64,000 nt of DNA from NCBI GenBank assembly GCA_964409035.1, contig CAYPBQ010000002.1:83267-147266 (forward strand), written 5' to 3'. The stretch is from an uncultured Candidatus Saccharibacteria bacterium. Its GTDB lineage: Bacteria; Patescibacteriota; Minisyncoccia; Phycocordibacterales; UBA12088. The first letter of the stretch is position 1. Each line of letters opens with the position of its first letter. The translations under genes were made by a program, and so were the position numbers. The notes under the pieces are model-generated. The model was not told the DNA's origin. It ran no database searches and saw nothing but the letters and a program-made list of their open reading frames with translations. This document shows, piece by piece, positions 10,947-43,079 of this stretch.

Positions 10947-10974
10947 GCACTATCGCGATATATCGCGATAGTGC
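10947..10974. repeat. 28-bp perfect palindrome gcacTATCGCGATATATCGCGATAgtgc (copy 1 of 4).
   Basis: Exact reverse-complement symmetry. It lies just upstream of the rnhA start and at the 3' end of the yerC-like gene. Confidence 0.9.
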
Positions 10975-10982
10975 GTGTGGGG

Positions 10983-11435
10983 TTATCTTTTATTACGGGA
11001 GTGCAGACTCTGCCACCGCCCATTACCTACTACTGGTGGCAATCCTACTCTAAGCGCATACTCAATATTTTTCCATAGTGACTCACTGCGTTTGGTATTG
11101 CTAAACAATCGTTGCAGCGATTCAAATCCTCCAGTGGTAATCATTGCAGTATACATTCGTACTGTGGAATCACTCACGCTCAGTATTTTTGCGATTCTAT
11201 AGGTAGAATATCCTCTTACCACCATACCTATAATTGCCAAACGCTTGGCAAGCATAACCCGTTCTGTTGGAGTAAACAAACTAAGTATTACTTGAGATTT
11301 TTGTTGCGAAAGTAATTCAGCAAATTCTTCGGTGATTTTTTTGTCTGCGTACTCTTGAATATGCTTTTTTGAGACATGTGTCACCCCTCCAATATAGCGA
11401 TATATCGCTATATTGTCGTGAAAGTTTTCCACCAT
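10983..11435 (-). CDS. TrpR-related YerC/YecD-family helix-turn-helix protein, a putative transcriptional regulator.
   Basis: LFTPTERVMLAKRLAIIGMVVRGYSTYRIAKILSVSDSTVRMY matches the YerC/TrpR HTH consensus. The N-terminal limit is uncertain. Confidence 0.55.
   Translation of the reverse strand: MVENFHDNIAIYRYIGGVTHVSKKHIQEYADKKITEEFAELLSQQKSQVILSLFTPTERVMLAKRLAIIGMVVRGYSTYRIAKILSVSDSTVRMYTAMITTGGFESLQRLFSNTKRSESLWKNIEYALRVGLPPVVGNGRWQSLHSRNKR
11391..11414. repeat. 24-bp perfect palindrome aaTATAGCGATATATCGCTATAtt (copy 2, variant core).
   Basis: Exact symmetry. It lies inside the 5' part of the yerC-like ORF. Confidence 0.9.
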
Positions 11436-11446
11436 ACCTAGCCAAT

Positions 11447-11476
11447 CACACTATCGCGATATATCGCGATAGTGTG
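11447..11476. repeat. 30-bp perfect palindrome cacacTATCGCGATATATCGCGATAgtgtg (copy 3).
   Basis: Exact symmetry. It lies in the 41-bp gap between the recJ stop and the yerC-like start. Confidence 0.9.
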
Positions 11477-13606: not shown

Positions 13607-14078
13607 ATACAACATGCGGATTTACTACCGCGCGATAGTCGGCTGAGGTTATAGCCATCGAGACACCTCTGTCACCTGCATTAAAGATAATCTCGTTATT
13701 GGTATATAGCGATATATCGCTATATACCGGAAGGTTCCATAGTATGCCAAATGGTGGCACGCCCCCTGGCTTAACACCATCAGTAATTTCTGCGACCTCT
13801 TCTGGCGTAGCAAAGCGTATATCACTTGCACCGAGTACCTCTTTTAATTTCTTTGAATCAAATTTTTTATCTCCAGGTACCACCACCATGACAAAAAATT
13901 TTTCACCATGTTGTTTTACTCTCACGATTAAGGCCTTTGCCCCCTGAGATAATGAATATTCTGGACGCACCATTGCTGCCTCCTCGCTGGTGCAAACTGG
14001 TTCATGAACAAATTTTTTATACAATACTCCGCGTGACGACAAAAGTGACTCTATGAGGGCTACTGTTTTATGCTCCAT
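13596..14078 (-). CDS. YbaK/ProX-type aminoacyl-tRNA deacylase domain protein.
   Basis: GGVPPFG and LPVY...FNAG conserved blocks of the YbaK/EbsC family. Confidence 0.65.
   Translation of the reverse strand: MEHKTVALIESLLSSRGVLYKKFVHEPVCTSEEAAMVRPEYSLSQGAKALIVRVKQHGEKFFVMVVVPGDKKFDSKKLKEVLGASDIRFATPEEVAEITDGVKPGGVPPFGILWNLPVYSDISLYTNNEIIFNAGDRGVSMAITSADYRAVVNPHVVSIA
13701..13728. repeat. 28-bp perfect palindrome ggTATATAGCGATATATCGCTATATAcc (copy 4), embedded in the ybaK-like CDS.
   Basis: Exact symmetry. It encodes VYSDISLYT within a conserved block. Confidence 0.9.
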
Positions 14079-31910: not shown

Positions 31911-32149
31911 AGCCAAACTATCGCACATACCACTCGACACTGCAACAATACAGACACATTATTTGCGTATAGCAATTTATGACAAAAATTTTTAACAATG
32001 TATCATAATTATTGTCAATAGTTACGCTATCCTCAAGCGCTCTATTGCAGTATTTTTTAGCTACGATACAATGCTCGCAGGTAAGGGTGTACGCACCCCA
32101 CACACCACACCCTCTCACTCGGGAGGTATTACTCAATAATTATTTGTTC

Positions 32150-32422
32150 ATGAACAAGCAAACATTGGCAGAAAAGGTTCACGAGACTATTGGTTGCACC
32201 AAGGCAGACGCTGAGCGTGCAGTAGAAGCAATAATCGATGGGATCGTAGAGGGAGTAAAGAAGGGAGGTGAAGTATCAGTTGCTGGTCTTGGTATTTTTA
32301 GCTCTAAGATGCGACCAGCACGCGCGGGACGAAATCCTCGCACTGGTGAGTCAATCAGCATCCCTGCTATGCGAGTACCTAAGTTCCGCGCAGCAAAGGC
32401 TTTCAAGGACTCTGTAAAATAG
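32150..32422 (+). CDS. hup: DNA-binding protein HU. The start is MNKQTLAEK, within the longer ORF 32012-32422.
   Basis: 90 aa. GLGIFSSKMRPARAGRNPRTGESISIP is the HU beta-arm signature. Confidence 0.85.
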   Translation: MNKQTLAEKVHETIGCTKADAERAVEAIIDGIVEGVKKGGEVSVAGLGIFSSKMRPARAGRNPRTGESISIPAMRVPKFRAAKAFKDSVK

Positions 32423-32443
32423 TTTCTATTTGCAGACGCACAA

Positions 32444-32476
32444 ACAAAGACCGCCACATATGGCGGTTTTTGTTGT
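32444..32476. terminator. Bidirectional terminator (aaagaccgccacatatggcggtcttt) between hup and the convergent orphan gene.
   Basis: Stem with an A-run before it and a T-run after it. Confidence 0.6.
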
Positions 32477-33063
32477 TACTTGTGTTTATTTCCTAAGCTT
32501 TTTAAAACTGCTGTAATTTTCATAATATTTTTATTTATTTGCACCACCTCATCTTCACCGGCTCGTATCCTGCCGCTTTCGTTTATCAAGAAAGTAATTA
32601 TTTCAAGTAACGGCAATACGACACTAATAATATAATCAATTTCAATTGACCAAGAAATCGGTCGGTAGTGAATTAAGGGGTTTCGTAAATTATCGTTAAG
32701 CGTTTTAATAGCCTTCTTATGTTCATTTTTTGCAACAAAAGGCTTCGCATTTATATACCCTGTCATCTGTTCTTTTTTCTGTACTAGATCAAAAGCTTCC
32801 TTAAAATCAATTAGTTTTCCTTCTTTTAAACCTATGGTATTCAGATATTTATCGTCCGCCCAAACTCCCGACAAATCACTGTTTTGGAGGGCAAAGAGCA
32901 TGAAGTGATAAATTGCATGATGAATTGCAACTATAAACCACTTCCAGTAGAACTGATCATTTTTTGTCTTTGATAAAAAAACTACCGCCTTTTGGAGTGA
33001 GTCAATTGCATTACTCTTTTCATCAATCCTAAAATAGTGATCATCCATAGGCTTTTTTGCCAT
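32476..33063 (-). CDS. Hypothetical low-GC orphan protein (195 aa) with an Rx4H motif (RNPLIH), possibly HEPN-like.
   Basis: No recognisable family. Markedly AT-rich compared with neighbouring genes. Adjacent to a tRNA. Confidence 0.3.
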   Translation of the reverse strand: MAKKPMDDHYFRIDEKSNAIDSLQKAVVFLSKTKNDQFYWKWFIVAIHHAIYHFMLFALQNSDLSGVWADDKYLNTIGLKEGKLIDFKEAFDLVQKKEQMTGYINAKPFVAKNEHKKAIKTLNDNLRNPLIHYRPISWSIEIDYIISVVLPLLEIITFLINESGRIRAGEDEVVQINKNIMKITAVLKSLGNKHK

Positions 33064-33227
33064 GATTTAGTAACGTAACATTGTGGTACGGGAATTTCGG
33101 TCCTTGGAAACCTTCGGTTTTGGAGCGTTCGCTTTGCTCACTGCCTTCCTCCACAACAAGAGTATCCTCTCCCGACCCCTCTCATTCCGGTATCCCTCGT
33201 ATGTATAATGCCCTTTGGGCATGTATT

Positions 33228-33301
33228 TGGTGCGGGATACCGGAATCGAACCGGTACCTACTGCTTGGAAGGCAGTCATTCTACCACTAAACTAATCCCG
33301 C
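33228..33301 (-). tRNA. tRNA-Gly(UCC), with CCA encoded.
   Basis: Acceptor GCGGGAT/ATCCCGC, anticodon loop CUUCCAA, T-arm ACCGG-TTCGATT-CCGGT. Confidence 0.85.
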
Positions 33302-33329
33302 AATCACAATGTAGATGATTCTACCAAAT

Positions 33330-33365
33330 AACAACAAGTCCCGCCATAGAGCGGGACTTGTTGTC
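33330..33365 (-). terminator. 14-bp perfect hairpin (acaacaagtcccgc/gcgggacttgttgt) with a T-run on the minus strand; terminator of the acidic micro-ORF.
   Basis: Seen in the sequence; the minus strand reads the hairpin followed by tatttgg. Confidence 0.55.
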
Positions 33366-33373
33366 GCTAAGCC

Positions 33374-33463
33374 TTATTCTGACATGTCTGCGTCTTCTTC
33401 TTCGACAGCCACATCATCTGCCATATCACCGTCTGCTGCGTCATCCTCATTTTCCTCTTCCAT
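33374..33463 (-). CDS. 29-aa hyper-acidic micro-protein, MEEENEDDAADGDMADDVAVEEEDADMSE.
   Basis: Perfect Shine-Dalgarno site AGGAGG 5 nt upstream of the ATG, and a strong terminator immediately downstream. Not in the ORF track because it is shorter than 60 aa. Confidence 0.4.
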   Translation of the reverse strand: MEEENEDDAADGDMADDVAVEEEDADMSE

Positions 33464-33666
33464 AGAAACCTCCTCTGCGAACAAATGACTCAGATCAAGT
33501 AATTCTAGCGTTTGCATATATTATTCAGTTACTCAATATCGTACGATATTGTGTCTGATAAAAGGCTTCGCTTAAGAAGCGAATAAAAATAGTATACACA
33601 AAAATGCCCTATATTCAATTATCAGTGAGGCATTTCAGGTTCGCTAATAAGTGTTATACTCGGCGT

Positions 33667-34887
33667 ATGACGAATACAGCTCATCGCGTCGCGCTCCTTT
33701 CACTTAGCCTTTTCTTGTTGGTTATTTTTGGACTGCAGTCATTGTATGCGCCAAAAAAACAACTAACCCTTACTCAACACTCTACTAGCACTCCACCAAT
33801 GGAGGAGACTTCAATAGAAAAGGTTACCGCCCTTATAAAAGAGGAGATTACAGCGACAACCACTTCAACACTCCCTGTATTGCCAACAAAACAGGATTCA
33901 ACACCAACAAAAACAAAGAATGTAACTAGCTCAATTGCACCAAAGGAACCTGAGGAAGTTGTACCCGTTACCCCGGCAACGCTGAGCAAAACAGTAACCG
34001 AGACCCTCACTCCTCCCCTTCCGGTAGATATATTTCCGGTATCATTTTCAAGTATTAACGAAGATGTACGAGCATCGCTCGTCAATATACTTTGTGTAAC
34101 AAAATCTGGTGGACCGCTTATGCCTATTTCAGGATCAGGCATTATCATAGACGCTCGAGGGGTCATACTCACCAATGCACACATTGCTCAATATTTATTG
34201 CTTAAAGATTACATCGTAAAAGACTATGTTGAATGTATTATCCGCACAGGATCGCCAGCGTACCCTCTCTACACTACCGAGCTACTCTATGTATCCGAAG
34301 CGTGGATACGTGAAAACGCGGTACAAATTGATAGCGATAATCCCGTAGGTACTGGGGAACATGACTATGCCCTATTGCGAATTACCGGTACTGTTGATGG
34401 TGATGCAATTGGAGTAATTCCACACACTCCCGTAGATACAAAAGAGCTTGCAGTTGATGTGGGGTCTGAAGCGCTTGTTGCTGGTTATCCTGCAGGTTTT
34501 GTAGGAGGTATTACCATACAAAAGTCTCTCTACCCCGCATCAAGTGTCACCAGCGTGCGTGAAGTGTTTACCTTTGCCACCTCTACTGTTGACCTTATAT
34601 CAGTTGGCGGCAGTGTAGTAGCGCAAAAGGGCTCATCAGGAGGGGCGGTAGTGGGAAGAGATGGAAGATTAAAAGGTTTGGTAGTCACCTCAACACAAGC
34701 AGAATCAACCAATGACAGAGATTTGCGAGCGATCACACTCTCTCATATCAATAGAGATATAAAAATATCAACCGGCTATTCGTTAGGAGATTTTCTTTCA
34801 AGAAACCTATCTACTGAGTCACACCGATTTATTACTACGGTCGCGCCCACTCTCACTCGCCTACTTGAGAATGCGCTACGTGACTAA
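33667..34887 (+). CDS. Secreted or membrane-anchored trypsin-like (S1 family) serine protease with no PDZ domain. The start is probably MTNTAHRVALL.
   Basis: Catalytic triad in context (TNAHIA, DYALLRI, GSSGGAV). Signal anchor. Thr/Pro-rich linker. Confidence 0.7.
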   Translation: MTNTAHRVALLSLSLFLLVIFGLQSLYAPKKQLTLTQHSTSTPPMEETSIEKVTALIKEEITATTTSTLPVLPTKQDSTPTKTKNVTSSIAPKEPEEVVPVTPATLSKTVTETLTPPLPVDIFPVSFSSINEDVRASLVNILCVTKSGGPLMPISGSGIIIDARGVILTNAHIAQYLLLKDYIVKDYVECIIRTGSPAYPLYTTELLYVSEAWIRENAVQIDSDNPVGTGEHDYALLRITGTVDGDAIGVIPHTPVDTKELAVDVGSEALVAGYPAGFVGGITIQKSLYPASSVTSVREVFTFATSTVDLISVGGSVVAQKGSSGGAVVGRDGRLKGLVVTSTQAESTNDRDLRAITLSHINRDIKISTGYSLGDFLSRNLSTESHRFITTVAPTLTRLLENALRD

Positions 34888-34898
34888 AAAGTGATTTC

Positions 34899-35999
34899 TT
34901 AGCTACGCATTGCTACATTTGTAACAAATGCGTGTAGTACCTCACGATATCGTGATACATCATTAATATCTATCCACTCTTCCTCACTATGAGCACCACC
35001 ACCGCGTGGATACGTAAGAAGTGAAGGAATACCGTACCGGGCAAAGTGGCGTGCGTCTGAGGCGCCGTGTGAGCGAGTCCATCCCATCTCTATACCATAG
35101 AGATTTCGTGCAATTTCAGCAAACAACTGTGCTTCTTTATTATGTGGTGAAATGCCACACGCTGGCTCATCCATGACTATGTGATATGAAACTCTCGCAT
35201 CTTTGGCGATTATAGTCTTTATACCCTCAAGCATTGCTTCTCTATCTGCTTCATCAATTACTCGTATATCAGCATGCACCACAGCCCTCTCTGGCACCTG
35301 ATTAACGGCTTCGCCTCCCTCAATACGAGAAAAGGTTATGGTTGAATGCCAGTGATGCTCATCCTCTGTGGTAAATGAAGAAACAAATTTGGTAATAGCA
35401 TCAATGGTGGTAAGTAGTGTAGTTATCGCATTATCCCCCAACCACGGCCGTGACGCATGCGCAGAAGAACCAACTGCTTCAATTTGAATTCGGATCATTC
35501 CTTTTGCATACTCCTCAAAGCACCACTCACCTCCTCCATCAGGAATAATCGCAAAGCCTCCTCTGTATCCCTCTTTTTCAAGCAACGCGCGCACTCCATC
35601 AAACCCTCCCACCTCTTCATCCGCGGTAATCATAAGGCCAAGGTCATATTGCGATACCCGATCCCCAAGCTCGCGCAAAATATCAATGTATAGTGCGATT
35701 GCAAACTTCATATCAAATGCACCTCGCCCTTTTAATACTCCATCTTCAATCTTTGAATGAAACAGTGTAGTAGCCCCTGGCACCACATCAATATGAGCAC
35801 TGAGCCAAAGCGTTGGAGATTTGGTTGCGGTACTTGTAGCTACAAGAGATTGATGTCCGCTATAGGTATACCGATGCAGGTGTAGTGGTACGTCACGTAG
35901 TTGTTCCTCTATAAAATCATATGCCATTGCCACCTCTGTATGGTTACCCGTAACCGTGTGAAAGGTGATTAACTTTTGGAGTGTTTCTAACAAATGCAT
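34899..35999 (-). CDS. M20-family metallopeptidase (ArgE/DapE/CPG2-like).
   Basis: HIDVVPG ... GAFDMK ... ITADEEVGG metal-binding blocks. Confidence 0.75.
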   Translation of the reverse strand: MHLLETLQKLITFHTVTGNHTEVAMAYDFIEEQLRDVPLHLHRYTYSGHQSLVATSTATKSPTLWLSAHIDVVPGATTLFHSKIEDGVLKGRGAFDMKFAIALYIDILRELGDRVSQYDLGLMITADEEVGGFDGVRALLEKEGYRGGFAIIPDGGGEWCFEEYAKGMIRIQIEAVGSSAHASRPWLGDNAITTLLTTIDAITKFVSSFTTEDEHHWHSTITFSRIEGGEAVNQVPERAVVHADIRVIDEADREAMLEGIKTIIAKDARVSYHIVMDEPACGISPHNKEAQLFAEIARNLYGIEMGWTRSHGASDARHFARYGIPSLLTYPRGGGAHSEEEWIDINDVSRYREVLHAFVTNVAMRS

Positions 36000-36089
36000 A
36001 CTAGTGACTGTAAACCATTTATTACTATTTGAAAATAAAGACACCATGCCGCACGTGGCGTGGTGTCTTATTGTCCCGAAACCGATATG

Positions 36090-36356
36090 CTACTTTGGAG
36101 GCTTTAACTGAGCACTAAGGTAATCACCTATCACTTGTAATGCGGCATCTCTACCATCCACGCCTAGGATGTTTATAGCGTGGCGCACTACTGATGGGTG
36201 TTGTTCAACGAACTTAAGGAAAAGCTTTATATCCATAGGATCTCTACCGAAAAGCATGGAGAAAGTGTCTATGATTTTATATTGCTGGGGTGTAAACACA
36301 CTGACGTCCATTTTATTCTCCTCAAAGAACTTCGCGAGCTCTCGCGACCAAGTCAA
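36090..36356 (-). CDS. Hypothetical 88-aa protein.
   Basis: ORF only. Moderate codon plausibility. Confidence 0.3.
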   Translation of the reverse strand: MTWSRELAKFFEENKMDVSVFTPQQYKIIDTFSMLFGRDPMDIKLFLKFVEQHPSVVRHAINILGVDGRDAALQVIGDYLSAQLKPPK

Positions 36357-36416
36357 TTGCGACCTGGAGTATCTGTCTATCTCCTGTAGGCAGATACTCC
36401 AAAGAACAATGTATAC

Positions 36417-36444
36417 AAAAGCCCCTCTGTGGGAGGGGCTTTTG
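36417..36444. terminator. Bidirectional terminator aaaagcccctctgtgggaggggcttttg.
   Basis: Perfect 9-bp stem flanked by A4 and T4. Confidence 0.6.
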
Positions 36445-36473
36445 TTGATTTATAGTGTCTTGATTTATTTCAA

Positions 36474-36536
36474 CTAAAAGCGCCCTCCTTGTGGGAGTGT
36501 AATCAGTACGAGGGTAATCAGCGCTATTTGCTTCAT
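36474..36536 (-). CDS. Candidate leaderless 20-aa hydrophobic micro-ORF, MKQIALITLVLITLPQGGRF; alternatively a ~115-nt small RNA.
   Basis: A minus-strand promoter (TTGACA, 17 bp spacer, TACTAT) ends 7 nt before the ATG. A terminator at 36417-36444 lies downstream. Confidence 0.25.
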   Translation of the reverse strand: MKQIALITLVLITLPQGGRF

Positions 36537-36542
36537 AAAAAT

Positions 36543-36570
36543 ATAGTACCGAACCAAAAAATACTGTCAA
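36543..36570 (-). promoter_or_regulatory. Minus-strand sigma70-like promoter (TTGACA, 16 bp spacer, TACTAT).
   Basis: Hexamers seen on the reverse complement of 36543-36570. Confidence 0.4.
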
Positions 36571-36581
36571 GAATAATAGAG

Positions 36582-36607
36582 AAGACGGCGCCCAAGGGCG
36601 CCGTCTG
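36582..36607 (-). terminator. Hairpin agacggcgcccaagggcgccgtct; minus-strand terminator of the 81-aa ORF.
   Basis: 10-bp GC-rich stem. On the minus strand a T-rich tract (tctctattattctt) follows. Confidence 0.5.
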
Positions 36608-36643
36608 TTTGGGGCATCATGCCCCGTGATAATCCGCAACACT

Positions 36644-36889
36644 TCAATCTTGCGGTGGTGTAACCGTATGAACCTCAGTAAAAATTACCACACCGCTTCT
36701 TCCATCTGGATCAGCGTCTGGCGCACTCGGGTAGATAGGTACATGTATCTTTGGAAATACAGGGAGTCTACTACCGCTACTACCCCAACCGATTGGAGTG
36801 GGCTTCCCCTCTCTACTAACAGATCCGCCATGGACTGGATCTCCAGGGACAGGCGACTGAACGAAAGCAAAACCCATTTTATCCGGCAT
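36644..36889 (-). CDS. 81-aa Pro/Gly-rich small protein, MPDKMGFAFVQSPVPGDPVHGG...
   Basis: Perfect Shine-Dalgarno site AAGGAGG 5 nt before the ATG. A downstream terminator. It lies in frame within the longer ORF-track entry 36644-37024. Confidence 0.35.
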   Translation of the reverse strand: MPDKMGFAFVQSPVPGDPVHGGSVSREGKPTPIGWGSSGSRLPVFPKIHVPIYPSAPDADPDGRSGVVIFTEVHTVTPPQD

Positions 36890-36924
36890 AAAAGCCTCCT
36901 TGCGTCGCCAGGGTCGACGCACTG

Positions 36925-36990
36925 TTTCCACTATTACCCCCTGGAGTGTGATCACCACACAATAACCACACTTCAGGGGGTAATACCTGA
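36925..36990. repeat. 19-bp near-perfect inverted repeat (tattaccccctggagtgtg / cacacttcagggggtaata) forming a long hairpin in the 5' UTR of the 81-aa ORF.
   Basis: Seen directly. One mismatch. 16-nt loop. Confidence 0.8.
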
Positions 36991-37028
36991 TGAAACTTTT
37001 ACCTTTCTCCAAAGAACAATTCATCTAC

Positions 37029-37068
37029 ACGACAACCGGCCCCTGTGTGGGGCCGGTTGTGTGTTTTT
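37029..37068 (+). terminator. Plus-strand intrinsic terminator (acaaccggcccc-tgtgt-ggggccggttgt followed by GTGTTTTTG).
   Basis: 12-bp GC stem followed by a T-run. There is no plus-strand CDS upstream. Confidence 0.55.
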
Positions 37069-37210
37069 GAAGTATTTTATCTACAACATTACGCACGCAT
37101 ACGGCCCCCAATCATTGGGAGTAGCCATGAAAATGCATACGCAAATACCTGTTGCATAAAAGGATAGTAACAAAGATGCTCTATCTGTGTCAAATATTAT
37201 GTGCTTGTTG

Positions 37211-37245
37211 AAAAAAAAATTGACCCCGGCACAAGTGCCGGGGTC
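37211..37245 (-). terminator. Minus-strand intrinsic terminator (gaccccggcac-aagt-gccggggtc followed by T9).
   Basis: 11-bp stem. On the minus strand it is followed by aatttttttttc. Confidence 0.7.
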
Positions 37246-37304
37246 TGCAGGCAAAGCCTGCTCCGATGTCCTGGGGCCCGAGGGCCCCGCCGATGGTGTT
37301 GATG

Positions 37305-37466
37305 CTACGCTGACTTGCCGCCGTCGGGCCGTCGCGACTTGCCGGGGTCCTGGTGGCCGACGGTCGCCTGGCTGGTGTCGTGCCGGTGCGTCGTCGCGTT
37401 CCAGATGTCGGTCGCCTGGCTGTTGTCGAGCATCGCAAAAGAGGTAGGATGATCACTTCGATTCAT
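37305..37466 (-). CDS. 53-aa hydrophilic micro-protein encoded in a ~68% GC island, MNRSDHPTSFAMLDNSQATDIWNATTHRHDTSQATVGHQDPGKSRRPDGGKSA.
   Basis: GGAG Shine-Dalgarno site 7 nt before the ATG. An upstream TGTATAAT extended -10 element. The strong terminator at 37211-37245. It contains two ~20-bp direct repeats (CGGTCGCCTGGCTG-G/T-TGTCG). Confidence 0.3.
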   Translation of the reverse strand: MNRSDHPTSFAMLDNSQATDIWNATTHRHDTSQATVGHQDPGKSRRPDGGKSA

Positions 37467-37643
37467 CGCTTTTCTCCGTAGCTACCGGCTTTGTTGGTGG
37501 ATCTTGCGATCCGCCGGTGCTAAGTAGAAATCTACACGATTATACATAAAAGTCAATAGCTTTCCCTATTTTCTAAAAAGTCTCAAGAGAATTGCACTAC
37601 GTCGAGCCACATTCTGGAATATCAACAAAGAAATGGTTTTAGT

Positions 37644-38438
37644 TTATAGCTCTGCTCCAACTGCAAGGTTGAAACGCTCCTTAGCACTCTCGCCTTGCAC
37701 GACAATTTCAACAAACCTATGTTCATCTATACCAGAGCTACCAACAATAAGGGCGCTTTCACCCTTTGGTACTGCTGCTAGGTGCTCGTAGCAGGTAAAT
37801 GTCCCAAGTTTTGTTTGTACCTGTGAGCCTTCAGCAAAAGAAATTTCTTGAGGTAGGATGGTGGTCTTTGCATTACCAAAGTTATCTATCCACCACAACG
37901 CATGTGGTGCTGATGCAACTTCTTGTAGTGAAATAGTTTCTGCGGGTACTGTATTACCCCCCAAAAGGTAAGCAAGCACTCGTGGGGTAAAGTCAAAACT
38001 TCTAAATTGTGACCCAATAATTCTATTGCGCTCTTCTTCTGTCATAGCGCCACCTGCCACCATTGCCTCAGTAACTGTAGGAATATCCATAAGAGACACT
38101 GATTCTGTAAGGGCAAGCTTTTTAATGAGCGAGAGCGTGAATCCATCGAATGATGACACCACAAGAGTGTCTCGCACTAAAAAGTAGCAAAACGGTGTGC
38201 CGTTTTGCCACTTTTTACTACCTTTATGGCGAGGGGCCACATTTACCAAAATCGCGGTTTTATTAGAAGTATCACGATACGCATCAAGCACATCAATAAG
38301 ATTGCCCGCTGCTGAAAGATCGCCATAATCACCCACACCCACCAAAGAAACAGATGCTCCAGTAAGCGCAGCAACACGGGCAAGCTGTCTTCCTCCCGCA
38401 TTATCATCGTGACAATCATTAATGATGGTGATGTGCAT
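37644..38438 (-). CDS. DUF62-like protein, a putative SAM hydroxide adenosyltransferase (SAM hydrolase/halogenase fold).
   Basis: C-terminal GSSGIDEHRFVEIVVQGESAKERF resembles the DUF62 GSSGLLEIAV..GSAA block. The N-terminal region is only weakly similar. Confidence 0.4.
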   Translation of the reverse strand: MHITIINDCHDDNAGGRQLARVAALTGASVSLVGVGDYGDLSAAGNLIDVLDAYRDTSNKTAILVNVAPRHKGSKKWQNGTPFCYFLVRDTLVVSSFDGFTLSLIKKLALTESVSLMDIPTVTEAMVAGGAMTEEERNRIIGSQFRSFDFTPRVLAYLLGGNTVPAETISLQEVASAPHALWWIDNFGNAKTTILPQEISFAEGSQVQTKLGTFTCYEHLAAVPKGESALIVGSSGIDEHRFVEIVVQGESAKERFNLAVGAEL

Positions 38439-38506
38439 GGTATGACAATAAATATATAAAGGTTATTTGAGCATACCCCAGAGCACTAGGCGCGTCTACT
38501 CTGCGC

Positions 38507-39673
38507 TTATAGTGACAGTATCTCTTGTGTGGTGGAGGCAACAGACTCATCCTTATCCTCTGTTGCAGGTAATTGTGTCTCTTCTACCACCTCAAATACA
38601 AGTGGTGTCTCATTTTTTAAAATAGATACCAATGCTGCATTCTTTGATGCTGAGACAGCGACACTAAACTTCTGCGCGTTCTCAACCTCATCACACTCAT
38701 CACCCCCAGCACTTACGTTAAGTTGTATGGAAATTTCTTCATTGTTATTGGTTGTAGAAAGGGTAGATTCAGCAGTGACAAGCTCGCACACACCGCCTTG
38801 AAGTGATCCGGCAAAGTGGTGCACCCCATCTTCGTATCGGTGGGTAACCACAATAGGTGTAGTGTGTGCTATTACTGCCGTCACCGATTGTGGTATACCT
38901 GCAATACGTGATTGCACAGTATCAATAATAGGGGTTAGCGCAGTGGTAGGCACTGCATACATAGCAATCTCTGTACCCACATGAGCAGAAACCTTAGCAG
39001 ACACCTCAGATGATCCCTCTATTGAGAGGGGTTGCGTATCTACCGCTTTATTAAGCGCAAGAACTGCACCCTCTTCAATAATCGTACTCTCAATTGCCAT
39101 AAGCTCTTCAGAGCCTTTCAAGAGCGCCTGCGCAAAAAGGGTGCTAATGGTGTCAGCTGTTTCAGGGCTTTCAACTCGTAGCTTTGCTATTTTTTCAGAT
39201 GCGCGTGACGCAAACGTATCAATATCAACTGCAAGTGATGCAAATACTGCCTCTGGAATATTTTTTGAATTGCGTGCAAGGGTAATTGCTTCATCAAGAC
39301 GACGCTCCGCGCGACGAATTTCCCACTTTGCTGAAGCCTCGTCACTAAACGCAAACAATAGACGAGCCTCCTCATTTATTTTTACTTTTACGGTATACAA
39401 AGAATCTCCAGGGAGCGAGCCCTCTGCAGCATACGAAACTCCTGATAGCGCAATTATCGCTACTAAAGATGCCCCCATAACAGGACGAGCGTGGTTTATA
39501 AACCAAGAAAATAGTGGATATGCTGCACTAGGCTCAGAACGTACTACCCCTGTACGCAGCGGTGTCATGGCAACATACTCACGCAACACATTTTTCATGT
39601 GTTCACGCTCCTCATGAGAGAGGTAAAATTGTTGATTGTTATCCTTCATATACAAATTGTTTTTCAGTTGCAA
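38507..39673 (-). CDS. Putative membrane anti-sigma factor (DUF5667-like) downstream of the ECF sigma factor.
   Basis: Operon position, overlapping the sigma gene. A single transmembrane helix after a ~60-aa cytoplasmic N-terminus. An LYTVKVKINEEARLLF block. Confidence 0.45.
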   Translation of the reverse strand: MQLKNNLYMKDNNQQFYLSHEEREHMKNVLREYVAMTPLRTGVVRSEPSAAYPLFSWFINHARPVMGASLVAIIALSGVSYAAEGSLPGDSLYTVKVKINEEARLLFAFSDEASAKWEIRRAERRLDEAITLARNSKNIPEAVFASLAVDIDTFASRASEKIAKLRVESPETADTISTLFAQALLKGSEELMAIESTIIEEGAVLALNKAVDTQPLSIEGSSEVSAKVSAHVGTEIAMYAVPTTALTPIIDTVQSRIAGIPQSVTAVIAHTTPIVVTHRYEDGVHHFAGSLQGGVCELVTAESTLSTTNNNEEISIQLNVSAGGDECDEVENAQKFSVAVSASKNAALVSILKNETPLVFEVVEETQLPATEDKDESVASTTQEILSL

Positions 39674-40187
39674 CTCGTTTGAGTGCCTTGAGCGCTCGAT
39701 GTAATCGTACTGATATTACATTTTCACTCTCACCGGTGATGGTTGCTATTTCTTTTGGAGATAGCTCGTCAATAAAGCGCATGGTTACCACCTGCGCGTA
39801 CTGGTCTGGAACATGAGCGAGCAAATCGTACACCTTCTCTGCATCAATACTCTTTACGGTATCTTTATGAGAGAGATCAACTAGCTCAGGAAAATCTCCC
39901 TCCTTCACATGATCACTCTCGAGTATTTCATCAAGAGATGAGGTTTTTTTCTTCCTATACTCATCGATAATAAGGTTGTTGAGGACTCGATACAAAAATG
40001 AACGATATTCGTCGATAATCCCCCCTTCACTTATGAACTTCCATGTTTTCATGAAGGTATCTTGGACTACGTCCTTTGCCTTTTCTCTATCTGAAAGACG
40101 AAATATGGCATGACGAAAAAGTACATCCGAATACTCATCAAATGACGAAATAAAAGCTTCTTCTGTTACTTTTTTGTTCTCTCCCAT
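39639..40187 (-). CDS. ECF-type RNA polymerase sigma-70 factor.
   Basis: Region 2 (VVQDTFMKTWKF) and region 4 HTH (LSPKEIATITGESENVISVRLHRALKAL). Confidence 0.8.
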   Translation of the reverse strand: MGENKKVTEEAFISSFDEYSDVLFRHAIFRLSDREKAKDVVQDTFMKTWKFISEGGIIDEYRSFLYRVLNNLIIDEYRKKKTSSLDEILESDHVKEGDFPELVDLSHKDTVKSIDAEKVYDLLAHVPDQYAQVVTMRFIDELSPKEIATITGESENVISVRLHRALKALKRVATEKQFVYEG

Positions 40188-40236
40188 AGTGAAGACGATT
40201 GAGGTATGCCTACTCTTTCATGTATACCATTAGGCA

Positions 40237-41034
40237 CTACCGTATCCCTAAAAACACCTCTACACCCTTTATTATACGCGACTCAAGGAGGGAGCTAACA
40301 CCATAATGACCTCCCTTCTTATGCATAACCATGCGTATCCCCATGCGTGTTGCAAATTCCTTTACTGGCGCACTTAACACTACGGTATCATCATCGGCAT
40401 GAAAGATACACACCTTCTCTGCAGCTATGAGCTTTGTGCTGTGGACTGGATTGTATAAAGTGCCTTTCCTCAATTTTTGTACCACATTCTTTGTCCATCT
40501 ATATCCATTACCAAATGCCTGTAGCGCATACGCATGCATAGCCTCAAATGGTTCACCATTTGAGGGGTGCGCCCAATCTACAACTGGCGAGAGGGCTATC
40601 ACCTTTTCTACTAATGGATGATGTGATGCCATAAGTACGGCAGGCCCTCCGAAGGAAGCTCCCACAAGATGAATTGACTTAATTGGTATATGTACCATCT
40701 GTTTACTCCACAGATCTTCGAAACCTTTTTCTATACCCGAAATAACATCAAGCACATCATAGTGGTGTGACTTTGCTAGAAACACCCCACCGCTTTCCCA
40801 ACTGCCTCTATATCGAGGCTGAAACGCCCAATACCCCTTGCTAGAAAAGTACTCTAGTAATTCAGGGGCGCCGGGACTACTTGGTGCTCCTTTCATTATA
40901 ATTACCACCTTTCGTGGTGATTGCTTTGGTGGTGTAGCTTTTTTGCCTTGTGCAACTGCCTTCATATAGGCATATACATCTTTTGGAGGTAAATATTCTG
41001 AAACTATGTCGTGTGAGAAGCGGGTACGAAACAT
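40237..41034 (-). CDS. Alpha/beta-hydrolase fold protein (S9/dienelactone-hydrolase-like).
   Basis: GASFGG nucleophile elbow, with downstream catalytic D and H. Confidence 0.6.
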   Translation of the reverse strand: MFRTRFSHDIVSEYLPPKDVYAYMKAVAQGKKATPPKQSPRKVVIIMKGAPSSPGAPELLEYFSSKGYWAFQPRYRGSWESGGVFLAKSHHYDVLDVISGIEKGFEDLWSKQMVHIPIKSIHLVGASFGGPAVLMASHHPLVEKVIALSPVVDWAHPSNGEPFEAMHAYALQAFGNGYRWTKNVVQKLRKGTLYNPVHSTKLIAAEKVCIFHADDDTVVLSAPVKEFATRMGIRMVMHKKGGHYGVSSLLESRIIKGVEVFLGIR

Positions 41035-41216
41035 ATTACATTACTTGTTCCTCGCAAAAATAACCAACCATTCCTACAGATATCATAATAATGGCGATAA
41101 CCGCCCAAAATGCAAGGGGATATTCTAACCAGATACATATGTATCCGGATTCTACACACTATCCAGTCTATATAACTTACTCGTGCGTTGTTATGGAATG
41201 AGCACCCTACGAGGAT

Positions 41217-41582
41217 TTATAAGATGTATATGAAAGTGGTCGGGGATAGATTTAAATTTTTTTGTTGCCTCCCAAGATATTGATAGGTATCCGCAAGGTG
41301 CGTGTGTTTAATCTCTACCAATTCTTCCTTCTCTTCTTGGGTTAAACCTCGTTCATCTACATGCCTAAGTGGTATAAGCATGTGATGTACTTCTGCAAAC
41401 TTTCCGTACGGAAAGGCGTTTATAACTATCCGCCAGTGGTTAAATATGTGCAGTGCAGGCTCATCGCTACAAAGCGGACACCCAGCATCCTCCGGTTGTG
41501 ATTTGCGGTGGGCTCGGTATGCTTCTTCTACCTCTGGTAGCCTAAGTGATACTGGTGTATACGACATAACCTGAGTGTGCAT
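41217..41582 (-). CDS. Hypothetical HIT-like or CPxC-motif protein.
   Basis: GCPLCS motif and an HHxLIPLRH His cluster. Weak assignment. Confidence 0.3.
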   Translation of the reverse strand: MHTQVMSYTPVSLRLPEVEEAYRAHRKSQPEDAGCPLCSDEPALHIFNHWRIVINAFPYGKFAEVHHMLIPLRHVDERGLTQEEKEELVEIKHTHLADTYQYLGRQQKNLNLSPTTFIYIL

Positions 41583-41622
41583 CCTAAAAATAATTCCAAA
41601 CCTGCTTCTCTCTCTTATGTTG

Positions 41623-41693
41623 TCGGGGCGCCGAGAATCGAACTCGGGCTACACGGTCCCAAACCGTGCGTACTACCTCTATACGACGCCCCG
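41623..41693 (-). tRNA. tRNA-Pro(UGG), no CCA encoded.
   Basis: C1:G72 acceptor typical of bacterial tRNA-Pro. Anticodon loop UUUGGGA. T-arm CCGAG-TTCGATT-CTCGG. Confidence 0.8.
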
Positions 41694-41764
41694 CGAGGCA
41701 AAACCATATGACTCGTTACGATAACGTACCATAATATACGAATAAAATGAAGCGTATATCGCTC

Positions 41765-42190
41765 TTAAAATGAGACATTCTCAAAAAACTCACACTTTGC
41801 CAGCTTCTTATTCTCATCTATATAAACTGTAATAAGATCAACCTGCCACTCCCCCACCTCACGCTCTTCAAGATACATTTCAATGGTGCTGAGCAATTTT
41901 GCGAGCTTGTGTCGGGTCATATTTTCTTCAGGTCGTATGCCTGGCACAGACGGCACGTAGCCACCCTCTGACCCTGTAAATGTGCATATCGCACTCTTTA
42001 CTTCTATAAAGTGAGTTACTCCCCCATTTGTTGCAACTAAATCTATTTCTCCATGAGTGGTGCGGATATTTCTATCCACCACATGGTGACCTCTATCTAA
42101 AAGCCACTTAACTGCAATGTCCTCTCCCAGTTTACCTGTCTTTTGAGCGGTTGTTGTACCATAGTTCCACATATTCATATTATAAGCCAT
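41765..42190 (-). CDS. YraN (UPF0102) family endonuclease-fold protein.
   Basis: GEDIAVKWLLDRGHHVVDRN...GEIDLV...FIEVKS restriction-endonuclease-like core. Confidence 0.65.
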   Translation of the reverse strand: MAYNMNMWNYGTTTAQKTGKLGEDIAVKWLLDRGHHVVDRNIRTTHGEIDLVATNGGVTHFIEVKSAICTFTGSEGGYVPSVPGIRPEENMTRHKLAKLLSTIEMYLEEREVGEWQVDLITVYIDENKKLAKCEFFENVSF

Positions 42191-42329
42191 ATTTCAACCT
42201 TTTGCTATAAAAAGACTCTCTCGTATGAGACTAAAAAGGTCGTCCTTTATACACTAATCCCCAGAGTTATCCACAGTTTTGACCTATTCTGTGCATTTCT
42301 TTTATCCCTTTGGCAGTAGCAAAGGGATT

Positions 42330-42602
42330 AGAGAATGGAGTAATCTTTTAATACGACCAAAGAAACAAGGAGCGGTGCGACTAGATTTCTTGAAGTACTC
42401 CTGTGGTGCAGGTAGGGAGAAAGGGTCAGCTCACTAAGTACATTGAGTCGTAAACTCCTCAATGTACTAAGTGGCTCCTCCCCGGCCTCACCTGTCGTAC
42501 TCGCTATCGCTCCGTGCGACATGGCTCCGGCTTTCGATTCTCCACGAAATGCACGAAGGTGTATTACTCTACCCATTCAAAATATATCGTCAAAGCTTCG
42601 CT
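42330..42602 (-). ncRNA. rnpB: Probable RNase P RNA, reduced, about 270 nt.
   Basis: The reverse strand reads GAGAAUCGAAAGCCGGAGCCAUGUCGCACGGAGCGAUAGCGAG. This resembles the P4 5' strand and the downstream conserved region of RNase P RNA; compare the B. subtilis GGAAAGUCCAUGCUCGCACGGUGCUGAGAUGC. A candidate P4 3' strand (GCUCCUUGUUUC) lies ~170 nt downstream. The element sits directly 3' of tRNA-Gly. Confidence 0.5.
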
Positions 42603-42618
42603 TTTTCCTCTTATTTTG

Positions 42619-42689
42619 TGCGGGTAGGGAGAATCGAACTCCCGTCTGCTCCATGGCAAGGAGCCGTCATACCACTAAACTATACCCGC
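42619..42689 (-). tRNA. tRNA-Gly(GCC), no CCA encoded.
   Basis: Acceptor GCGGGTA/TACCCGC, anticodon loop UUGCCAU, T-arm GGGAG-TTCGATT-CTCCC. Confidence 0.85.
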
Positions 42690-42754
42690 AGTTGAGGTAG
42701 CAACGCTACTCAATTGCTCAAAACAATACCACTTATCCCCTCCCCTCTCAAGTT

Positions 42755-42964
42755 TTAATGAACATCCTGCTTTAACTCTTTGAGCGATAGGTCGTTAAAA
42801 TATAGGTACGCCAAAGCAAAAAGACCTGGAACGATATCCCCTAGTAATGAGTTACCAAAAAAGTAGTCTGCGCCGTGCCATATAGCCCTCCAGATGAGCG
42901 CCAAACACACTACTACTAGCACTGAGTTGATTACTCCATGACGCTTAATAAAATCTTGAAACAT
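42755..42964 (-). CDS. Small two-TM membrane protein, hypothetical.
   Basis: ORF plus hydrophobicity only. Confidence 0.3.
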   Translation of the reverse strand: MFQDFIKRHGVINSVLVVVCLALIWRAIWHGADYFFGNSLLGDIVPGLFALAYLYFNDLSLKELKQDVH

Positions 42965-43007
42965 GTATCGTATAACTAGCGAATCAAATTAAAACCCCTA
43001 CTTTTTG

Positions 43008-43079
43008 TGCGCCCGCCAGGACTCGAACCCAGAATAACTGATCCGAAGTCAGTTGTGATATCCATTTCACCACGGGCGC
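43008..43079 (-). tRNA. tRNA-Arg(UCG), no CCA encoded.
   Basis: Acceptor GCGCCCG/CGGGCGC, anticodon loop CUUCGGA. Confidence 0.75.

Follow-up and report, generated by a model that had tools for sequence, protein, structure and literature searches.

This study examined a small acidic open reading frame (ORF) on the minus strand of a 64,000-nucleotide (nt) stretch of an uncultured Candidatus Saccharibacteria genome (contig CAYPBQ010000002.1; the whole stretch that was analysed is called the window here), where it lies between a tRNA-Gly(TCC) gene and a divergently oriented serine protease gene. The tRNA gene, located with a tRNA scan at 33228..33301 of the minus strand, served as the synteny anchor, and the membrane-anchored protease of the trypsin-like Trypsin_2 family occupies 33667..34887 of the plus strand with a likely start at ATG 33667, the L001 orthologue beginning at the equivalent methionine. 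In the initial annotation, the ORF between them had been read as a gene of 29 amino acids (aa), MEEENEDDAADGDMADDVAVEEEDADMSE, which spans 33374..33463 from ATG 33463 to the stop codon TAA (33376..33374) by direct reading. An in-frame ATG further upstream, at 33517, extends the same frame to a 47-aa product, MQTLELLDLSHLFAEEVSMEEENEDDAADGDMADDVAVEEEDADMSE (33374..33517 including the stop, minus strand), in which MQTLELLDLSHLFAEEVS is placed ahead of MEEE...; the additional codons 1-18 (33464..33517, minus strand) make up a lineage-specific N-terminal extension with the core LDLSHLFA.EV. and contain the hexamer AGGAGG. The longer form was assigned from a called protein (P0001) together with frame-specific constraint, and the comparisons described below suggest that the locus very probably holds a conserved, selected small coding gene of 47 aa.

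Five distinct alleles of the gene were collected by way of the protease and protein look-ups, from loci whose proteases are 79-87% identical. The window shares its 47-aa allele with L007; the others are those of L001, an uncultured Candidatus Saccharibacteria metagenome-assembled genome with a protease 85% identical to that of the window (44 aa, MQTLELLDLSHLFAQEVPMEEEEKEEGDMTEDATVEEKDADMSE), of L002/L003 (43 aa, a TCA to TAA nonsense change having cut the final two residues), of L004-L006 (42 aa) and of L008, with its protease at 79% identity (52 aa, MKEVLKPLDLSHLFAQEVPMEEEKEEADTATPAEEGDMPEAPVEEEDADMTE). The indels among these alleles measure 9 and 15 nt, all multiples of three, and no frameshifts were seen. 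Across pairs of alleles the ratio of nonsynonymous to synonymous differences per site (pN/pS) was 0.13-0.44, and in the comparison with L008 the synonymous sites were near saturation (pS 0.74, pN 0.16). Summed over pairs, the ratio was 0.20 in the ORF frame vs. 0.98 and 2.19 in the shifted frames, and 23 of the 37 variable ungapped columns fell at codon position 3 (p = 3e-4). The proposal that the acidic ORF is a genuine, expressed-looking ORF rather than a chance frame beside a terminator is therefore upheld by its conservation in relatives and by frame-specific purifying selection; the comparison that could have separated a conserved hairpin from an unconserved ORF came out in favor of the ORF, which was present in every relative found. 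The supposition that the ORF is too short to be called automatically did not hold, as public protein collections, with NCBI and Logan as the sources, already include an identical called 47-aa protein. A serine-rich antisense ORF also lies opposite the gene on the plus strand (33315..33488); it was rejected as a gene and attributed to GAN-rich sense codons, the period-3 constraint, which was computed in the three sense-strand frames only, fitting the frame of the minus-strand ORF.

The composition of the product stands apart from that of the other small frames in the window. Sixteen residues of the 29-aa ORF are acidic (8 D and 8 E, 55%), rather than the 19 that had been counted initially, and the window's 47-aa protein has a predicted isoelectric point of ~4.05 and a net charge of ~-20 at 5.2 kDa. 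Lysine and arginine are absent from the peptide, which would therefore escape tryptic proteomics. Among the 25-80-aa ORFs of the window it is the only one with at least 16 D or E in 29 residues (the runner-up has 28% D+E), and no comparable acidic ORF appeared in 40 Markov-shuffled windows; the acidity is well outside chance expectation. Searches of Pfam, NCBIfam, PDB sequences, PHROGs and PADLOC gave no match beyond noise (e.g., a UreE-like His-rich match for L037), and in Rfam the tRNAs alone passed the threshold. A profile search with three close alleles against 1.84 billion representatives recovered, besides the query, only two proteins of low-complexity or repeat type, which were discarded as spurious, namely a 1533-aa protein with LDVSNHLYANEVSF repeats (P0124) and a repeat-rich cell-surface protein (P0125).

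More distant relatives among the Patescibacteria were reached through the neighboring protease, whose homologue alignment retrieved 80 metagenome loci with proteases 38-54% identical to that of the window (57% in L097). Most of these loci have the tRNA-Gly(TCC) gene a short distance upstream of the protease. Gaps between tRNA and protease of less than ~150 nt hold no ORF, and gaps of ~250-650 nt almost always hold a small ORF of 20-54 aa that is divergent from the protease, rich in A, P, T, E and D, and has few or no K and R. A strict filter (minus-strand ATG-initiated ORF with A+P+T+E+D of at least 0.7) was applied to the 20 distant loci with a 250-650-nt gap and was passed in 12 of them, by 12 of 45 gap ORFs vs. 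0 of 590 ORFs in the rest of those loci (Fisher p = 3.6e-15); looser family members were seen in L011, L035, L037 and L076. The ORFs in this slot include those of L013 (MDEMNPGTEGQTPEATPESAPAEAAPAEGGASTDAPATE), L017 (MEENMNANVEGETPTEGAPEATPEAAPEAAPEAPAETIDEASA), L023 (MDENTTAPAGDAVEETATPAEATPEAAPAEGGEATAE), L080 with 31% GC (MDENTNNDAVVADATTNEAEAPAVEAEATTEAPAEASNEGTPATE) and L010 with 56% GC (MSDVTTTPADVAAEEVAVAPEAEVAAEVEAEAPEAVVAEEAPAAE), as well as a short P/T-rich group comprising L018 (MKKEPKPVPPTTEPAEPTTPTE), L021, L032, L035 and L016. The amino-acid composition is kept across 31-56% GC, and its Ala/Pro-rich character persists even in the 31% GC locus L080, an indication that selection acts on the protein. 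Several of the distant slot ORFs already appear as called genes without a name in data from NCBI, JGI or Tara.

In the alignment of the family (A5), Met19 of the window protein falls at the family start, with MEEE beside MDEN, MEEN and MNEN. The members share the start motif M[DE]E[NM], the core GD[MA]P and a C-terminus that is often [DE]AP-A-[TS]-E, with which DADM[ST]E aligns. The core motif reads DGDMADD in the window, EGDMTED in L001, DGDMPGD in L002 and EGDMPEAP in L008 among the close alleles, and AGDMPAT in L094/L097, AGDAPEAP in L077 and AGDAVEE in L023 among the distant ones, the GD[MA] motif of the 29-aa core being common to L008, L094, L097, L077 and L023. A C-terminal Glu, typically after T, S or A, was found in ~13 of 21 lineages, which is above the expectation from composition and is not universal. 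L008, which contains ADTATPAEEGDMPEAP, forms a compositional bridge, L097 carries MDEMNTAGDMPATDAP... in the same slot, and a protein found by profile only (P0134) proved to occupy this slot too, with a Trypsin_2 protease and HU as neighbors; a word-indexed search with the family alignment gave few matches (best E ~1e-3) and was useful only through the slot of P0134. In two distant subgroups the lowest pN/pS was that of the ORF frame (0.38 and 0.58 vs. 0.79-1.57), which is weaker evidence, as protein-guided alignments push the ORF-frame ratio down. Combined, these features make it probable that the window peptide is homologous to the distant slot ORFs, and we conclude that the 29 residues first recognized would represent the ancestral family core, to which the window lineage appears to have added an 18-residue extension, the core itself having become hyper-acidic.

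Other occupants of the slot were also observed. In L037 (1882-2046) and L040 (1031-1195) the counterpart is a 54-aa Cys/His/Asp-rich peptide, MDEEKKVCEHCGDDSGSCGCGSSHDHDHDHDHDHDDHDDKVEEPEDDDTEDDDM, a composition that is typical of metal binding and that is the sole hint in favor of the suggestion in the initial annotation that such peptides buffer metals. In L034, L036, L038, L056, L065, L078 and L088 the micro-ORF is replaced by a conserved 215-238-aa ORF with an N-terminal helix-turn-helix (HTH) and an LGLGxYIGEG motif, for which no Pfam family was found above the cut-off; this ORF may be homing-endonuclease-like or mobile.

The most serious competing account concerns the start codon. The product could be a 29-aa peptide translated from ATG 33463 by way of AGGAGG, as the sole product or as an isoform made together with the 47-aa protein, and we consider this unlikely. 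The signal that had been described as a perfect Shine-Dalgarno (SD) site does exist on the minus strand (AGGAGG at 33474..33469, a 5-nt spacer and ATG 33463, by direct reading). ATG 33517 has no SD, Met19 is invariant in all five alleles, and distant members begin at the Met19 equivalent (MDEN/MEEN), hence at what would be the ancestral start. As an SD signal, the hexamer is not borne out: it is the coding sequence GAG GAG GTT (Glu-Glu-Val) in the 47-aa frame, and it precedes Met19 in the window/L007 allele only, being absent from L001, L002, L004 and L008, where the site reads CAAGAAGTG or CAGGAAGTG instead (CAA GAA GTG or CAG GAA GTG codons; the relatives carry CAAGAAGTGCCT or CAGGAAGTGCCA). 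A further point against it is that the arrangement AGGAGG-N4-8-ATG is present 5 times in the window. The choice between the two starts turns on the block LDLSHLFA.EV.M, located 5' of ATG 33463, in which codon position 3 accounts for 9 of the 11 variable columns (p = 0.0014). The 13 codons 5' of Met19 thus vary almost only synonymously, a pattern that is explained by translation only; the stretch is therefore read as translated, with the start at 33517 and a gene of 47 aa in place of the 29 aa first proposed. Additionally, a nascent chain beginning MEEENEDD would be of the type most prone to ribosome destabilisation. A survey of SD use across the window was too crude to be used, with starts uncertain and the best of many candidates picked.

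Upstream of the gene, a putative sigma-70-like promoter was identified at 33591..33618 of the minus strand (-35 TTGAAT at 33618..33613, a 16-nt spacer and -10 TATACT at 33596..33591), and in the scan this was the sole promoter-like site in 32400..34400. Across L001, L002, L004 and L008 the -10 TATACT does not vary and the -35 fits TTGA[AT][AT]. With a predicted start of transcription near 33585, the implied 5' untranslated region (5'UTR) would be ~70 nt long with two small conserved stem-loops. The 5'-proximal stem-loop, GCTTC-TTAAGC-GAAGC (33565..33580, minus strand), is kept in all five alleles, as GGCTTC-N7-GAAGCC in L008, and we infer that it acts as a 5'-end stabiliser. On the opposite side, the protease has a promoter-like element, TGtTATACT (33652..33660, plus strand), that ends 6 nt before ATG 33667 with the same layout in L001, suggesting that the protease mRNA is probably leaderless; the promoters of the micro-ORF and the protease are divergent and back to back.

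Between the micro-ORF promoter and its start codon lies the 16-bp perfect palindrome AATATCGTACGATATT (33535..33550), 17 nt 5' of ATG 33517. The palindrome is present as it was first described; its role as an operator-like site in a promoter region shared with the protease was not sustained, and we judge it improbable that it is the operator of a dimeric regulator acting over the divergent promoters. An operator would be consistent with the perfect dyad symmetry, with the retention of the arms in L001, L002 and L004, and with the excess of 16-bp perfect palindromes in the window (6 observed vs. 1.3 expected per shuffled window), four of which share CGATAT/ATATCG, beside the HTH gene at 10983..11435. 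About one such palindrome per window is nonetheless expected by chance, and the position is unfavorable, as the palindrome is part of the transcribed 5'UTR. It sits ~41-61 nt past the micro-ORF -10, about 45-60 nt past the predicted start of transcription and >80 bp upstream of the protease promoter, and overlaps neither promoter. In L001, L002 and L004 only the arms AATATC/GATATT are kept, around a center of GTAC, AAATA or GTATA, and the half-site spacing is not conserved (4 to 5 nt). The counterpart in L008 is a different inverted repeat, CAATACC-N13-GGTATTG, whose halves are 13 nt apart; by direct reading one T:A pair is replaced by C:G, which is more in keeping with an RNA hairpin. No covariation was scored when the MAFFT alignment of the 5'UTR was run through RNAalifold, partly since MAFFT misaligned the longer loop of L008. 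The pattern of the palindrome and its place inside the transcript would be more readily explained by a small RNA hairpin than by an operator, on the basis of this single compensatory event.

Elsewhere in the window, an identical 26-bp perfect palindrome, CACTATCGCGATATATCGCGATAGTG, was found on both flanks of the 150-aa HTH ORF (10983..11435, minus strand). The palindromes near this ORF are at 10948-10973, 11392-11413, 11449-11474 and 13707-13722, with ATATAGCGATATATCGCTATAT as a related form, and together they could represent a regulator that controls its own gene through these operators, or else a small mobile unit.

Downstream of the gene, a terminator-type hairpin occupies 33324..33364 of the minus strand, with a 14-bp perfect stem (33364..33351/33344..33331) that RNAfold lengthens to 16 pairs, the loop TCTATG and the tail TATTTGG. 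The transcript would be expected to end at about 33325. The stem agrees with the initial annotation; the hairpin does not follow the stop codon at once, beginning 9 nt past it, and the reported T-run is a weak TATTT. An uninterrupted U-tract is therefore lacking in the tail, and the terminator scan did not call the site, the T-run being too weak; part of the U-rich run falls inside the 3' arm of the hairpin, and distant homologues carry GGGGTTTTG-type tails. The hairpin is identical in close relatives (in L008 the contig ends within it), and all 15 distant loci with contig coverage have a hairpin of 9-24 pairs located 0-27 nt past the stop, usually 9-16 nt, with folding energies of -17.7 to -40.1 kcal/mol. 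Directly after the hairpin, and 16 nt 5' of tRNA-Gly, lies an extended -10-like element, TGGTAGAAT (33318..33326, minus strand), which is kept as TG[GC]TAGAAT in relatives and which we infer to be a candidate promoter of the tRNA's own; L077 (TGGTAGCAT) and L080 (TGGTAAGAT) have comparable elements after their hairpins. Four loci (L017, L033, L044 and L097) carry the tRNA in inverted orientation with the ORF and hairpin unmoved. By its conserved promoter, its terminator, the separate TGnTAGAAT element of the tRNA and the loci with an inverted tRNA, the micro-ORF reads as an independent transcription unit.

These observations bear on the possibility that the ORF is a cis-acting leader peptide, in which a D/E/P ORF that is hard to translate, through proline stalling or destabilisation of the ribosome as in MgtL, would sense Mg2+, elongation factor P (EF-P) or translation status and modulate the hairpin and read-through into tRNA-Gly. 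MgtL-type leaders precede a regulated downstream gene and work via alternative RNA structures. The ORF is like them in being short and in encoding a D/E/P-rich N-terminal chain, so that by composition it matches sequences of the intrinsic ribosome destabilisation (IRD) type; in such leaders the effect is offset by an upstream segment that fills the tunnel, a part that the 18-aa extension might play in this gene. The placement of the stop shortly before the hairpin is family-wide, and the tRNA is co-oriented downstream in most loci. The system differs from MgtL-type leaders in its dominant terminator, in a tRNA with its own putative promoter and in conserved product motifs under purifying selection. 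The cis-leader is less likely because the tRNA has its own conserved promoter element and is inverted in the four loci where ORF and hairpin persist; moreover, the fold shows no anti-terminator pairing that competes with the 16-pair stem, and GDMP, the conserved C-terminus and the low pN/pS (0.2) point to a selected product. We therefore regard a cis-acting leader as quite improbable.

It is very improbable that the locus encodes no protein and is instead a small RNA or a promoter-terminator unit with an incidental frame. Such a reading could draw on the lack of an SD at the start, on the GA-rich low-complexity sequence that is readily open on both strands, and on the folding of the region, which is better than that of shuffles (z = -3.4), though largely through the terminator; a sub-threshold Rfam match to the rimP leader (35 vs. 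a 47-bit cut-off) was discarded, being merely a hairpin and a U-rich tail. It is opposed by the frame-specific purifying selection and in-frame indels, by the retention of composition over 31-56% GC, by the enrichment of slot ORFs and by the absence of any Rfam family past the threshold. Least credible of all, and extremely unlikely in our judgement, is a tag or carrier in the manner of Pup/UBact or LysW, small disordered or acidic proteins used via a C-terminal Glu that here would be ligated to a target or metabolite: the micro-protein is like them in size, acidity, predicted disorder and frequent C-terminal Glu, and its window neighbor at a distance of two genes is an M20 peptidase, a member of LysK's fold family, but the micro-protein has no GGQ/GGE, no Cys, zinc ribbon or EDWGE C-terminus (the window protein ends DADMSE), ~8 of 21 lineages and the L002 allele do not end in Glu, PafA/Dop, proteasome and ATP-grasp genes (LysX included) are absent within ~10 kb, and the M20 neighbor is not conserved, L010 having a GATase in its place. 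The same extreme doubt applies to a version in which the family would be a Patescibacteria-specific conjugatable tag or carrier that acts through its frequent C-terminal [TS]-Glu, with the ligase encoded at another site of the reduced genomes and the GDMP core as recognition motif.

The explanation preferred here, a genuine 47-aa gene whose product acts in trans as a disordered polyanion, is one that we hold, as a compromise judgement on the whole, with about even confidence, and its functional component, a trans-acting polyanionic binder, is tentative and less likely than not. The product would be a free, intrinsically disordered and, in the window lineage, extremely polyanionic peptide that could use its charge, together with short conserved motifs, to bind cations or basic partners such as nucleic-acid-binding proteins and the surfaces of the ribosome or RNA polymerase, and LDLSHLF within the 18-residue hydrophobic extension may be a lineage-specific docking element. 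A likeness of LDLSHLF to the beta-clamp-binding motif QL[SD]LF and to the FtsZ C-terminal LDIPxFL was set aside, the resemblance being imperfect and LDLSHLF itself restricted to one sublineage.

Several known systems offer points of comparison. Ocr, ArdA and the HU-binding Gp46 of SPO1 are folded DNA-mimic or anti-restriction proteins encoded on mobile elements; the initial annotation had proposed a DNA- or protein-mimic role of this kind, or a buffer of metals or polyamines, as candidate functions. High negative charge density is shared with them; the micro-protein differs in being a 5-kDa peptide of predicted disorder in a conserved housekeeping block, with no homology to anti-restriction, defence or phage families in Pfam, PHROGs and PADLOC and no restriction-related gene nearby. 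A functional link to HU was considered and rejected, as HU adjacency was seen in 23 of 34 loci without the ORF vs. 8 of 14 with it. Another point of comparison is SutA of Pseudomonas aeruginosa, a small, acidic and largely disordered regulator that binds RNA polymerase (bioRxiv 10.1101/423384). Like SutA, the window protein is small, acidic, predicted to be disordered and encoded alone, and SutA, which demonstrates that bacterial proteins of this sort can operate on RNA polymerase, could serve as a model for a free acidic tail acting in trans on a basic nucleic-acid-binding surface. The two have no sequence similarity; SutA has roughly double the length and contains a central helix that is conserved, whereas no helix is predicted for the window protein. 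For translation of the acidic run itself, it has been found that nascent chains with a D/E(/P)-rich N-terminus cause translation to abort and that a preceding tunnel-spanning segment with bulky residues counteracts the destabilisation (Chadani et al., bioRxiv 10.1101/2021.02.02.429294). Because such segments have this effect, the bulky N-terminal extension could plausibly fill the ribosomal exit tunnel and make the acidic run translatable without IRD.

Several observations weigh against the explanation as a whole. The gene is known here from sequence alone, no partner protein was identified, and HU adjacency is independent of the presence of the ORF. AlphaFold2 predicted no secondary structure (pLDDT 68, pTM 0.19) from an alignment that contained only 3 sequences. 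The SD motif was not found before ATG 33517 or before the starts of distant homologues, whose leaders are A/U-rich (e.g., aacaccATG), and the window allele combines an invariant Met19 with a perfect AGGAGG 5 nt 5' of it. Homology across the family is drawn from short motifs in low-complexity sequence, with hidden Markov model E-values of at best ~1e-3, and the family is patchy, since in ~2/3 of loci the tRNA abuts the protease and leaves no room for an ORF, none being present. The polyanionic character is also not universal, the short P/T-rich subgroup (e.g., the ORF of L018) being nearly charge-neutral, and the homology of that subgroup is taken from position, composition and a C-terminal PTE only.

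The genomic context of the gene is housekeeping and not mobile. Its neighbors in the window include genes for a PilB-like ATPase, NusA, a pyrophosphatase, trigger factor, ClpP, RNase Y, prephenate dehydratase and HU, together with the protease, the M20 peptidase, a sigma factor, a CCA-adding enzyme and nearby tRNAs. The order HU, tRNA-Gly(TCC), protease, tRNA-Pro(TGG), tRNA-Gly(GCC), tRNA-Arg(TCG) is kept in many loci (window 32012-43079; L011-L098), often with RNase Y and UPF0102 also in the block. This block is unusually stable across Patescibacteria, given that its proteases are just 38-57% identical to that of the window. Beside the M20 peptidase, a region of ~1.6 kb (window 36050-37640) contains no convincing ORF, only short frames or frames of odd composition, and no Rfam family above threshold. 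On the 3' side of tRNA-Gly(TCC), the sequence is variable among close relatives (window 32476-33227); a 195-aa ORF without a family match (32476..33063, minus strand) is present in the window, L004 and L005 and absent from L001. In L001 (5460-5625), a ~35-bp direct repeat of the tRNA 3' flank surrounds a conserved G-rich segment of ~115 nt (window 33085-33200), for which there is no Rfam match and folding is no better than that of shuffles (z = 0.08). This may be an integration remnant at the tRNA.

The micro-protein family is unnamed and is not a new kind of system. Its bearing is on the biology of the Patescibacteria (Candidate Phyla Radiation), whose genomes are tiny and much of whose biology is obscure. 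A micro-protein gene that keeps a single syntenic slot across lineages in which the protease is merely 40-57% identical is unlikely to be junk, and what is conserved in that slot is only a composition, two short motifs and a terminator, with no match to any curated family. The locus also provides a cautionary case in that a seemingly perfect Shine-Dalgarno sequence may be just Glu-Glu-Val codons. As a short gene that can be synthesised, it offers a concrete target for pull-downs and in-vitro translation, and the Saccharibacteria form, in which a hydrophobic addition precedes a run of 55% D/E, would be a natural test of the idea that filling the exit tunnel rescues the translation of acidic chains.

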